Positions 4,610 to 58,226 of a DNA stretch of 64,000 nucleotides are shown here, one piece after another (the stretch's first letter is position 1; each line of letters begins with the position of its first letter). Below the pieces are notes generated by a model. The model saw only the letters and a list, made by a program, of their open reading frames with translations. It had not been told where the DNA came from and did not search any database. The position numbers were made by a program, and so were the translations under genes. This DNA is from Psilocybe cubensis (Eukaryota): NCBI GenBank assembly GCA_017499595.2, contig CM039006.1, positions 1,054,001 to 1,118,000 on the forward strand, written 5' to 3'.

Positions 4610-4618
4610 TTATTTATA
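4610..4618 (-). promoter_or_regulatory. TATA box (TATAAATAA) of the gasdermin-like gene, at the outer limit of the left repeat
   Basis: 80 nt upstream of the ATG at 4530. The same 9-mer is at the homologous position 58218-58226. Confidence 0.6.
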
Positions 4619-5029
4619 GCCCAATAACGCACAAGGATCCAATCGATAGGACTCGTGTTCTCCATGTGTTTACCTTATGTATACTCTCCGTCTACCCCGT
4701 GTAGATCCTCAAATCCATCTCTAAATCGTGAATACATGCATGACCACACCCTCTTGCACAGCACAGGGTTGGTCGTCCCCCTGTTAACCTCAACACCGAG
4801 CATAACTAGTGATCATAATGGACGCAGTACTAATTGACCGGGAATGAGGCGTAAAAGCCACTGCACATTCGTGTGCCCGACCCGTGATTTGATCTCGATT
4901 TTCATCTTTCGTTATAATAGAGTGCTAATGGACAGTGTAAGCTAAATAGATAAGCACCATGAAAAGCGAAGAAAGGCAGAAGGTAAGGAAGAAGTGGTGT
5001 AATATTGTATTATGTAAATGGGGTATGTG

Positions 5030-6530
5030 AGTGTTGCGTTCATGAAGAAAATTAATTAGCTAAAGAAGAAAGTCGAAAGAAAAAGCAATGAAGCTTGCAA
5101 ATAAGACGAATAATTTGAAGGTAATCTATATAAAACCTATTAGCTGGATGGCTAAGGGCTATACATACCAGGTGAACTTACTCATTTTTAAGAGGTCCCA
5201 TTCAGCAGACCGTTGCATGACACTTCCTAAGTTTGCTGGTTGTATGTACTTTTGATTTTGTAAAAATGTGAATTTTTATGGCAAGGTACCCTTGGTCGAC
5301 ATGTTAACAGCATAACATTCCCAAGCAAGGAAACACTCACTGCATGCAACGTCCTTTACCACAGAACCTCCCAAATATCCCGAATCTAGTGATACTAAAA
5401 CTAATGAAGAAATTTAACAAGAAAAAGAAAAACAGCAAAAGACAAAATAACTTGTGATTCTTGGTCAGCCATGGCATTGAGCGAGTTTGTGTAAACTCAC
5501 AACATAGAAACAGGACCGAGGACCCAGATCTAGTTGGGCTTGATATAGTTTGAGTAGAATTTGACTGCAGTGTTTACAAATTATCAAGACCTAGGAAATG
5601 TCAATGTGAGCAAACAATGATCGCATTGAATTATTAACACTCACCCAAGCAGATCTCTCGCATGTGGCAAGCATTACGGCGGACCCACTGTTTAAAGGAA
5701 CGTGAGACCATATTAATCGTAATGGGAAGAGTGAGTTGTATCGCAATCCGACTCCACCTCTGTCCAACGCCTGAGCTGAATCACGATTAGTTAAAACTGA
5801 CTAGAGAAAGAATATAGGAGAACATACCTCTAATCAATCTCCGCTCGCCAGACTCGCCCACAAACATGACAAACAAATGCACCCGCCGTCACCCACGATT
5901 CACATCAGAAGCGACGATGGCATACAACTGATGCTACTTTTTTCGCGGGGAGGGGACGGGATACAACAGCATTTCATACACACCCCCAAGGGCCCAGCTA
6001 GAAGCGACGATGGCATACAACTAGCTGAGCTGGTCTCGGGAGTGCCACCTATCAAGACGAGGTGAGGGCAGTGCCATCTGCCCCATCCATGACCCAACTT
6101 ATGTAGGCATACCGCGCAGGCCTAACCCACCAGGCCGGACTGCGCGGCCGATGTGGAGTGCAATACTTCCTGCTGTGTCTTAAAGTCACTGGGAACGAGT
6201 CTACATTGCGCGGGGATTGGTTAGTGGCTTTCAGATCGATAGGACTGACAGTGTGGCAAATGGCTCCGGGCGATATGTCCGAGAGGCGAGATAAATTGAA
6301 GGGACACAAGCCAGGGCTAGTTTTGCCCTAGGCGTGGTCAGGAGAATGCTGCACACTACTGTCAGAAGAGTTGAACAACGGCGAGATGGATACGACTTAC
6401 GCGGTTAAAGGTACGCCATTGCCGAAGCATGGTGTTCGTCTCAAAGATGTGCTGAGGGATAGCACTGAAGGTGAATAACGTTGCGACTTTTCCAAGAGAT
6501 GGTGGTGGAAGAGAGGCAAGAGACGATGCA
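5030..6530 (-). ncRNA. Putative spliced, structured lncRNA, copy A; ends approximate
   Basis: TATAAGAA at 6554-6561 (-), the same 8 introns as copy B, no long spliced ORF, hairpins at 5879-5964 and 5980-6045. Confidence 0.6.
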
Positions 6531-7218
6531 GACTCCTTTTCATGAGCGGCGGGTTCTTATACCTACACTCCGTATGTCATTGTTTGGCTCCTGATCGTCG
6601 TAGTGGGTGAGACACATAAACGATCGCATGTCTCAATATGGAAATCGTCTTTCCCAAATAGGATAGTTGAACCAACTGTCAGCATAAGTTGCAGCCTGAC
6701 CGGTCAAAGATATCACATTGCTAATTTGTATGCTTTTGAAATTTTGAATGATCACCAGTTTCTTCCAGTGTCGCCGCTTGGTCCAGTTAGAAGATGTAGG
6801 TAATACAGAGCGGTCAAAGATAATAGCCCTTTCTCTGTCATTTTTGACATCCCGGATTTTACAACAACGGAGACAGGATCGAAGGAGGCATCACCGGAAG
6901 AGGATTTGCGAAAGATCTGCTTCACGCTTGTGGCAACGATAACAAAGAGAATTGCGAAGTGTCGTCCAGTTGACAACATAGAGAATAAGCGGTAGTGGAC
7001 ACAGCATACATGACAGCAGAGAGAAAAAGGAAGATGGTGACTCATTCCAAGCTGTCCCTTTCAGTCGAGTCATGCCAAATATTGACTCCATCGGAGTCCT
7101 CGGAGTATGCCGGGGAGCGAGATGGAAGGCTTAGTCATCCGCGCCAACCGGCTATTAAATATTGGCAAAGATTATCGAGAGCTTTCCAACGTTCACCACA
7201 CTTTCAACCCATCAGTCT

Positions 7219-55870: not shown

Positions 55871-56299
55871 TGCCCTTTGATGGCGTTGGGATGAGACGGG
55901 AATGGCTACGTGACTCTGGTCCCTCAATTAGTCTCCCAAACTGTGACAGGTCGTGAATCCCACGTGATATTGTAATCAACATAGATTTCAGTCGGCGATT
56001 CAATATGCCTAACTGGGCGTGAGGTGCTGTTTTCCTCCTATTCTCAGTATCAGCTTGCCAGAAGTAATTCTATAATTTGTGTGTATACATCTGGTCCAGT
56101 AAATTAGTTGCAAGAAAAGGAGGTAGAAACACATGAAAGACATTTGATGTCAGCCGGCGATGATGAATATCCTTTTTGGGAAAGACGATTTCCGTATTCA
56201 GAACTACGATCGTCCGTATGTCGTCACCGACCTTAAAGGAAGACAAACAATGACATACGGAGCGTAGGTATAAGAACCCGCCGCCCATGAAAAGGAGCC

Positions 56300-57790
56300 T
56301 TCATCGTCTCTTGCCTCTCTTCCACCACCATCTCTTGGAAAAGTTGCAATGTTTTTCACCCTCAGTGCTATACCTCAACACCATGCTTCGTCAATGGCGT
56401 ACCTTTAAACGCGTAAGTCGTATCCATCTCGCCGTTGTTCAACTCTTCTGACAATAGTGTGCAGCATTCTCCTGACCACGCCTGGGACAAGACTAGCCCT
56501 GGCTTGTGTCCTTTCAATTTATCTCGCCTCTAGGACATATCGCCCGGAGCCATTTGCCACACCGTCAGTCCTATCGACCTGAAAGCCACTAATCAATCCC
56601 CGCCCAATGTAGACTCGTTCCCAGTGACTTTAAGACACAGCAGGAAGTATTGCACTCCACATCGGCCGCGCAGTCCGGCCTGGTGGGTTAGGCCTGCGCG
56701 GTATGCCTACATAAGTTGGGTCATGGATGGGGCAGATGGCACTGCCCTCACCTCGTCTTGATAGGTGGCGCCCCCAAGACCAGCTCAGCTAGTTGCATGC
56801 CATCGTCGCTTCTAGCTGGGCCCTTGGGGGTGTGTATGAAATGCTGTTGTATCCCGTCCCCTCCCCGCGAAAAAAGTAGCATCAGTTGTATGCCATCGTC
56901 GCTTCTGATGTGAATCGTGGGTGACGGCGGGTGCATTTGTTTGTCATGTTTGTGGGCGAGTCTGGCGAGCGGAGATTGATTAGAGGTATGTTCTCCTATA
57001 TTCTTTCTCTAGTCAGTTTTAACTAATCGTGATTCAGCTCAGGCGTTGGACAGAGGTGGAGTCGGATTGCGATACAACTCACTCTTCCCATTACGATTAA
57101 TATGGTCTCAAGTTCCTTTAAACAGTGGGTCCGCCGTAATGCTTGCCACATGCGAGAGATCTGCTTGGGTGAGTGTCAATAATTCAATGCGATCATTGTT
57201 TGCTCACATTGACATTTCCTAGGTCTTGATAATTTGTAAACACTGCAGTCAAATTCTACTCAAACTATATCAAGCCCAACTAGATCTGGGTCCTCGGTCC
57301 TGTTTCTATGTTGTGAGTTTATGCAAACTCGCTCAATGCCATGGCTGACCAAGAGTCACAAGCTATTTTGTCTTTTCTGTTTTTCTTTTTTCTTGCGGAA
57401 TTTCTTTATTAGTTTTAGTATCACTTGATTTGGGATGTTTGGGAGGTTCTGTGGTAAAGGACGTTGCATGCAGTGAGTGTTTCCTTGCTTGGGAATCTTA
57501 TGCTGTTAACGTGTCGACCAAGGGTACCTTGCCATAAAAATTCACATTTTTACACAACCACAAGTACATACAACCAGCAAACTTAGGAAGTGTCATGCAA
57601 CGGTCTGCTGAATGGGACCTCTTAAAAATGAGTAAGTTCACCTGGTATGTATAGCCTTTAGCCATCCAGCTAATAGGTTTTATATAGATTACCTTCAAAT
57701 TATTTGTCTTATTTGCAAGCTTCATTGCTTTTTCTTTCGACCTTCTTCTTTAGCTAATTAAATTTCTTCATGAACGCAACACTCACATAC
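56300..57790 (+). ncRNA. Putative spliced, structured lncRNA, copy B; ends approximate
   Basis: TATAAGAA at 56269-56276. Introns at 56413-56464, 56564-56612, 56701-56764, 56986-57037, 57169-57222, 57313-57362, 57473-57522 and 57632-57687, each with a donor, branch-like site and AG. Only short spliced ORFs found. Confidence 0.6.
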
Positions 57791-58217
57791 CCCATTTACA
57801 TAATACAATATTACACCACTGCTTCCTTACCTTCTGCCTTTCTTTGTTTGTTCTGGAACGTCGTATCCTATTTAGTTAGTTACAATGTGCATCAGCGCTC
57901 TATCATAATGAAAAAGGAAAATCACGATAAAGTACCGGTCTGGAACACGTACGTGCAGTGGCTTTTACGTCGCGGCATTCCCAGGTAATTTGTACTGTAT
58001 TCATTACGATCGTTAGTTATGATCACTGATAAGTTAGAAGGGTGGCGAACAACCTTGTACTGCGCAAGAGGCCATGGTAACGGGTATACACGATTCACAC
58101 ACAAATTGAGAATATGCAAGGGGCAGAAGCAGGGTATGCGCTCAGTACAGGTAAACACATGGAGAACATGAGTCCTTCATCGCCAATCATCGATTGATTC
58201 CTGGAGAGCTGGTGGGG

Positions 58218-58226
58218 TATAAATAA
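58218..58226 (+). promoter_or_regulatory. TATA box (TATAAATAA) upstream of the 554-aa gene, at the outer limit of the right repeat
   Basis: Homologous to 4610-4618. A possible 5'UTR intron lies at 58313-58514 (GTAAGC...CAG). Confidence 0.55.

Follow-up and report, generated by a model that had tools for sequence, protein, structure and literature searches.

Concerted evolution is the homogenisation of paralogues by gene conversion. In Ogataea polymorpha, 19 kb of DNA beside a centromere lies between two inverted repeats, which are identical and 2 kb long, and the repeats of Ogataea are described to move MAT genes into and out of centromeric silencing (PMC5720833). Inverted repeats were reported to mediate recurrent inversions in humans (PMC3961182), and in Drosophila inverted duplicates were described at the breakpoints of 17 of 29 inversions (PMC1885836). 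The DNA described here, termed the window, is a stretch of 64,000 nucleotides of Psilocybe cubensis (assembly GCA_017499595.2, contig CM039006.1, positions 1,054,001 to 1,118,000 of the forward strand). In it, two inverted copies of a 2.06-kb unit, the arms, enclose a block of 49.5 kb, and each arm is a complete, spliced, abundantly transcribed gene that was overlooked in an earlier note on this DNA. The explanation favoured here, with moderate confidence, is an inverted duplicate of a spliced gene, the core of which is kept alike by gene conversion and which serves at most as a passive substrate for non-allelic homologous recombination (NAHR).

Inverted repeat and spliced gene

The ~2-kb inverted repeat of the earlier note, 4610-6665 against 56168-58226, was recovered by a repeat search and by self-BLASTN of the window. 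The repeat search returned inverted arms of 1480 nt at 4957-6436 and 56377-57856 (97% complementary) and a second inverted pair of 141 nt at 6449-6589 and 56241-56381 (92%). In self-BLASTN of the 64 kb, 4648-6665 and 58176-56168 form a single inverted match (2039 columns, of which 91.2% are identical, with 128 mismatches and 30 gap openings), and no further copy of the arm sequence is present within the window. Together with the global alignment, this places the whole duplicated unit at 4610..6665 in the left arm, where the gene lies on the minus strand and the outermost ~40 nt are weakly alike, and at 56168..58226 in the right arm, where the gene lies on the plus strand. The pair constitutes a high-identity inverted low-copy repeat (two copies of at least 1 kb on one chromosome). 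The arms occupy two divergent-promoter gaps 49.5 kb apart. When outer was compared with outer flank and inner with inner flank by tblastx, one 18-aa low-score pair was the only match; the duplication therefore ends at the arm borders.

Several sequencing runs were compared with the window. X13 consists of raw DNA reads of another strain, matched at 80% likeness, X9 is a separate DNA run in the form of contigs, and X11 is a run of a more distant organism, D; X10 and X12 are presumed to be RNA. The summed depth of X13 is ~86 over 4970-6639 and ~34 in the flanks 3300-4802 and 6640-7307, a ratio of ~2.5, so that the arm is not a dispersed transposon; the repeat is low-copy. The many dispersed copies considered in the earlier note thus find no counterpart in the reads, and the assembly artefact considered there is not borne out either, both arms being supported by the independent DNA runs X9 and X13. 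The left inner junction is crossed by X9 contigs (6428-6867), and an X9 contig that leaves the arm at 6665 runs on with letters equal to the right inner flank of the window. Both X13 (29 reads) and X9 have loose ends at 4967 that agree with the outer zone of the right arm, apart from 2 mismatches in the overlap. The depth of X13 is ~1 over 4803-4969, and a joint 4882>4969 in both X9 and X13 skips 86 nt; the outer zone of the left arm therefore carries a deletion or replacement in the strains of these runs. Assembly from short reads and the calling of variants are likely to run into difficulty at the two arms in this genome.

Contigs of X10 skip four stretches of 50-56 nt in the left arm, the ends of which read CT..AC on the plus strand, corresponding to GT..AG introns on the minus strand. 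These introns (5126-5181, 5291-5340, 5591-5644 and 5776-5827; borders checked) have the donors GTAAGT, GTGAGT, GTGAGT and GTATGT and separate five exons on the minus strand (4924-5125, 5182-5290, 5341-5590, 5645-5775 and 5828-about 6325). The transcribed region of the left arm extends over 4924..6325 on the minus strand, its ends being contig ends and not mapped RNA ends. Carried over by the coordinate map from the arm alignment, the transcribed region of the right arm lies at 56488..57897 on the plus strand (both limits approximate), and its introns lie at 56986-57037, 57169-57222, 57473-57522 and 57632-57687, all four bounded by GT..AG on that strand. The transcription signal of X10 stops near 6325-6470 (depth 22 in 6306-6472, 0 beyond), and the duplicated upstream part, 6326..6665 on the minus strand, is the presumed promoter; identity between the arms over 6326-6590 is 87.5% with a 17-nt indel counted. 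The unit is thus made up of ~340 nt upstream, the five exons (about 4924-6325) and ~300 nt past the last exon. The presumed RNA nature of X10 is supported by contigs in which the flanking genes, too, are spliced, e.g. at the intron 7968-8017 of the FAP1 gene. Canonical splice ends were found in seven of the nine X10 joints listed, four of these in the arm and all four on the minus strand, and none of the four arm joints was seen in the DNA runs X13 or X9. The X10 contigs of the arm have mean depths of 97-454, those of the flanking genes 67 and 99. Right-arm letters occur at 4992, 5108 and 5255 in the most abundant contig of X10, and the right-arm type, at least, is expressed. The gene is directed outward in each arm, and a few hundred bases downstream of it begins an unrelated gene, with its ATG at 4530 on the left side and at 58549 on the right. 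Some 30 reads of X13 match a 34-nt exon piece alone, 5186-5219, flanked on both sides by unrelated sequence, which on one side opens in the manner of another intron donor; a contig of X10 with a depth of 166 joins 5219 to 5501. The first exon contains a perfect 23-nt direct repeat (5907-5929 and 6000-6022, 93 nt apart), for which a metagenome scan gave 0 matches; its second copy lies within one of three short islands that also match a contig of organism D.

The unit appears to behave like a spliced long non-coding RNA gene, because stops are present in all three frames of the spliced RNA, the longest open reading frame (ORF) with a start codon has 98 aa, and no match to a protein or RNA family was obtained. 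None of the six arm ORFs scanned (0/6) belongs to a Pfam family. Rfam returned nothing at gathering scores for the whole window, nor at E up to 1 for 4500-6800, and a tRNA scan of the window was negative. The ORF of exon D (69 aa) has no homologue candidate among proteins of 37-121 aa, the only size class searched. In the right arm, an ORF that has 66 aa in the left arm is shortened to 30 aa. Neither arm interrupts the 98-aa ORF, and the central tract of the arm is conserved between strains too, as would be expected of a gene that encodes a small protein and is kept alike by purifying selection. We consider this improbable: the two protein-level differences between the arms in this ORF both change the residue, the ORF ends upstream of two further introns, neither a Pfam family nor a homologue was found in the searches just given, and the introns are as alike as the exons (see below). 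The arms would be two copies of a spliced and abundantly transcribed gene that lacks both an annotation and a protein frame. In RNA folding, one of six sense windows reached z = -2.83, the others ranging from -1.5 to +0.4 and the antisense windows from -1.6 to +1.0. This low-energy window of 300 nt lies at ~5875-6175 on the minus strand, and a G+C-rich hairpin was noticed by eye around 6110-6150; a structured RNA is not claimed, a single window of this z being too weak. Telomerase RNA was dropped as a candidate; it had been raised by one 7-nt telomere-like word on the non-transcribed strand, seen by eye without a pattern search.

The splicing also bears on a non-autonomous transposable element or other dispersed repeat, an origin of the arms that is very doubtful. 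Such an element would account for the lack of a long ORF, for the resemblance of the left arm to an insertion of ~1.7 kb (see below) and for the third, diverged partial copy hinted at in other strains. It would not be expected to have four spliceosomal introns and an upstream region of its own, to reach a depth of just ~2.5 times the flanks at 80% likeness, or to have no other copy in the window. The arms contain no terminal inverted repeats, and the earlier note was right that target-site duplication and transposase are missing from them: the borders of the left arm share no direct repeat better than a 6-mer, those of the right arm share none, and the arm ORFs scanned have no family.

Probably homogenised core of the arms

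The identity between the arms changes by zones. The outer zone of the left arm, 4610..4956, is 68.6% identical to the right arm (258 of 376 columns) and is probably old and unconverted. The core, 4957..6590, which appears to be homogenised, is 95.2% identical, with 61 substitutions and one 17-nt indel, and its stretch 4957-6436 reaches 97% ungapped. Inside the core lies a central near-identical tract, 5492..6208 (99.2%, 6 differences in 717 nt), and the inner edge of the arm, 6591..6665, falls to 72.4%. Control flanks in the same global alignment are 37-38% identical. The longest identical run has 314 nt (5703-6016, equal to 56797-57110), followed in the core by runs of 165 and 144 nt; the stretch of about 56834-57110, across which the earlier note had found no differences, falls within it. 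The gradual decay which that note described at both ends does not hold at the outer end, where identity drops in one step from ~97% to ~69% at 4956/4957, beside an 8-nt indel.

Identities of 69, 95 and 99% in adjacent zones are not accounted for by a single date of duplication. When the 62 difference events were shuffled over the 1618 core columns in 20000 trials, an identical run of 314 nt was reached in 1 of the 20000 shuffles (p about 5e-5), and a 717-nt window with at most 6 differences in none of them. Between the arms, 4 differences fall in the 212 nt of introns and 41 in the 1157 nt of exons. Since introns are as alike as exons, selection on the RNA is a poor sole cause, and interlocus gene conversion is favoured. 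Other strains were also informative. At 5051, 5071, 5156, 5252 and 5258, the right-arm letter is present in all X13 reads and in a single X9 contig, 5019-5372, which has a depth of 18.9 where the flanks have ~10; at these sites, the two arms of those strains are therefore alike, and the left arm of the window is the odd one out. At 4992, 5108, 5255 and 5302, the right-arm letter is present in 31-43% of X13 reads. The A/C difference at 4992, at the edge of the core, is common to the window, X13 (22 of 58 reads) and X9 (two contigs, one for each letter). In X11, a 683-nt contig contains three short collinear islands, 5992-6024, 6213-6249 and 6491-6526, and has a depth of 175 as against 101 for the X11 contig of FAP1, a hint that fits two collapsed copies in organism D as well.

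The homogeneity of the core is most likely due to interlocus gene conversion, as judged from the arm sequences. The view of the earlier note, that an old duplication has a core kept homogeneous, gains support from the stepped identity, from the non-random clustering of differences, from the likeness of the introns and from differences that vanish between strains. In the explanation favoured here, a 2.06-kb unit, consisting of the presumed promoter and a gene of five exons and four introns, would have been duplicated in inverted orientation so that its copies lie in two divergent-promoter gaps. The duplication would be old, the unconverted edges being ~69-72% alike. The 1.6-kb core, and above all the central 717 nt, would have been overwritten repeatedly by non-reciprocal exchange between the arms. 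The same pairing of the arms may occasionally be resolved as a crossover and so invert the block, which would be passive NAHR and not a programmed switch. The locus would offer a clear case of concerted evolution of a non-coding gene pair, with introns homogenised along with exons.

Orientation of the enclosed block

The genes next to the left arm are the outer-left gene, 3308..4791 on the minus strand (ATG 4530), which is transcribed away from the arm, and the first gene inside the block, FAP1 (NF-X1 type), 7219..10900 on the plus strand (ATG 7219). The former was delimited from ORFs, the X10 contig 3308-4791 and outgroup homologues beside FAP1, the latter from Pfam and X10. A metagenome scan with a FAP1 exon returned four fungal loci with 67-70% protein identity, one of which (L001) is too short upstream. 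In all three informative loci (L002, L003 and L004), the homologue of the outer-left gene is divergent from FAP1 and directly beside it. Matched points lie 1315, 1429-1456 and 1405-1432 nt apart in these loci and 3069-3096 nt apart in the window, and the spacer between the outer-left gene and FAP1 is thus ~1.65-1.75 kb longer in the window than in the outgroups, a length near the 2.06 kb of the arm. The best match to arm-like DNA in the outgroup spacers had an E of 0.12, the level of chance, a result that is uninformative at such evolutionary distance. By this gene order, the junction between the outer-left gene and FAP1 is ancestral, and the block is accordingly not inverted at that end relative to the outgroup fungi. 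The left arm is probably the inserted, derived copy, because it stands between genes that are direct neighbours in related fungi.

The left junction also bears on the cause of the duplication. Inverted duplicates of otherwise unique genic sequence at both ends of the segment could be the footprint of a past inversion by staggered breaks, of which they would be a by-product and not the cause. Such an event would part old neighbours at the duplicated end, and the adjacency of the outer-left gene and FAP1 in three of three informative outgroup loci would then require a second, restoring inversion; this origin is highly improbable.

A crossover in the core would invert 6666-56167, rebuild two near-identical hybrid genes and break nothing. 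Recurrent inversion, in which such crossovers flip the block and both orientations segregate among strains or nuclei, corresponds to the reading of the earlier note minus any programmed switch. It is compatible with the favoured explanation, and we regard it as unlikely, though worth considering. The geometry fits, the core offers identical runs of several lengths (see above), the signs of gene conversion imply that the arms pair, every gene would be left intact, and there is a precedent in human inverted repeats (PMC3961182). The alternative linkage was seen in no read, contig or assembly, short reads and contigs being unable to span the 1.6-kb core, and the present left junction is of the ancestral type, so that the data need no inversion. 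Should flipping of the block occur, a mushroom-forming fungus would offer a compact, easily typed case of repeat-mediated recurrent inversion, and synteny and linkage around the block would have to be read with caution. Among the papers listed in a literature search on inversions or inverted repeats in Psilocybe, none was on Psilocybe, and the P. cubensis draft-genome paper, as far as its main text goes, is without mention of inversions.

A bolder version, in which a conserved, highly expressed, spliced non-coding RNA gene is maintained as an inverted pair by continuing recombination that also toggles the 49.5-kb block between two orientations, within Psilocybe populations or between the two nuclei of a dikaryon, is distinctly unlikely. 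If true, the locus would be a recurrent, nearly scar-free inversion polymorphism suppressing meiotic exchange locally over about 15 metabolic and housekeeping genes, and each arm copy might feed transcription into the unrelated gene just downstream.

A programmed flip/flop switch in the style of Ogataea and Komagataella mating-type switching, in which genes are moved into and out of a silenced position, is scarcely credible. The comparison with these systems in the earlier note extends to geometry only, a block of tens of kilobases enclosed by ~2-kb inverted repeats. Of the 255 ORFs of at least 75 aa in the window, 138 were scanned against Pfam, and none of the 138 gave a mating-type family (homeodomain, pheromone receptor or other MAT); the remaining 117 are for the most part alternative frames of the same genes. 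The genes adjacent to the arms are mutually unrelated by tblastx, and each either has no Pfam family or is FAP1. The arms are 95-97% alike and not identical, and each contains its own gene, which a crossover would rebuild nearly unchanged. Little or nothing obvious would therefore be switched.

Several points weigh against the favoured explanation of a conversion-kept inverted duplicate. The central tract is little changed between strains, with 3 differences in X9 contigs of ~657 nt, as compared with 1.1-3.3% in non-coding flanks; purifying selection may add to the identity of this tract, and some constraint is likely. The shared and private differences in X13 are a mosaic and not one clean conversion tract, and part of this mosaic could stem from private mutations of the window's left arm or from a third template. 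The 34-nt exon piece in X13 and the 5219 to 5501 joint in X10 suggest a third, diverged, transcribed partial relative of the arm elsewhere in the genome, and the family may have more than two members. With regard to the direction of duplication, L003 and L004 apparently come from a single species, and the three loci therefore correspond to about two taxa. The outgroups are also distant (67-70% in FAP1), and a shorter homologous gene in their ~1-kb spacer is possible, which makes the direction uncertain. With regard to the gene, the RNA label of X10 is a guess and contigs give no strand, ends or level; the basis of the non-coding call is thus the ORF content together with a single ORF in which the arms differ.

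Neighbouring genes and likeness to known systems

The enclosed block, 6666..56167, comprises 49.5 kb of ordinary genes according to the Pfam scans: NF-X1/FAP1, a GMC oxidoreductase, a protein kinase, a PcRGLX lyase, ATG27, an F-box gene, TFIIA-gamma, two tandem P450s, AA9, an amidase and DER1. The two genes which the earlier note had placed inside the block were both identified there, TFIIA-gamma by PF02268 (E 9.6e-13, 36946-37203) and the NF-X1/FAP1-type zinc-finger gene by PF01422 (E 1.7e-6, 7941-9575). The last gene inside the block, the inner-right gene, is an ORF at 54872..55870 on the minus strand (ATG 55870) that has no Pfam family. Beyond the right arm and transcribed away from it lies the outer-right gene, an ORF at 58549..60213 on the plus strand, with a product of 554 aa (P0001). 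Among 5.8 billion proteins, P0001 has only three relatives, itself included; the closest is 80% identical, comes from Psilocybe cubensis and is probably a paralogue on the same chromosome. The G+C content of the window is 42-53% per 2 kb, and 46% was reported for the published draft genome of P. cubensis (PMC8220353). The tandem P450 genes form the only other repeat in the window, a direct duplication of ~2.2 kb (37745-39890 and 42030-44203, 80%) that is unrelated to the arms and has minus-strand P450 exons (PF00067) in both copies.

The 5' part of FAP1 (7410-8300) has an X13 depth of ~90, as against ~34 in neighbouring single-copy DNA, with loose ends at 7410, 7856 and 8237 and joints 7622>7696 and 8163>8237; an 8-nt deletion at 7853 is present in 40 of 118 X13 reads. 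At least one additional FAP1-like copy thus seems to be present in the strain of X13. A contig of X10 within the outer-left gene, which lies on the minus strand, leaves out 56 nt (4174-4229) bounded by GT..AG on the plus strand and also has a minus-strand intron, 3535-3594. The plus-strand joint may reflect an antisense transcript or a merged contig.

Compared with Ogataea polymorpha and Komagataella phaffii (PMC5720833), the locus likewise has inverted repeats of ~2 kb that enclose tens of kilobases, but no MAT genes lie beside the arms and the arms are not identical. The inverted duplicates at breakpoints in the Drosophila melanogaster group (PMC1885836) likewise consist of non-repetitive genic sequence exactly at the ends of a segment, whereas here the left junction is in the outgroup state and the segment is not inverted at that end. 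Low-copy inverted segmental duplications that are subject to interlocus gene conversion and give rise to recurrent inversions by NAHR, such as the human polymorphic inversions (PMC3961182), resemble the locus in having kilobase-scale inverted copies, two to three per genome, with high mosaic identity, that flank tens of kilobases of unique genes. Here, in contrast, the unit is one small fungal gene and not a large duplication block, and no second orientation was observed in short reads and contigs, which do not span the core. With the concerted evolution of duplicated genes, the locus shares a core far more alike than its edges, introns homogenised together with exons, and arm differences that are largely strain-specific; it differs in that the gene is apparently one for a non-coding RNA and that the copies are inverted and 50 kb apart. 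The structure is of a known kind, an ordinary low-copy inverted duplication and possible NAHR substrate, of which the P. cubensis locus is a new example.

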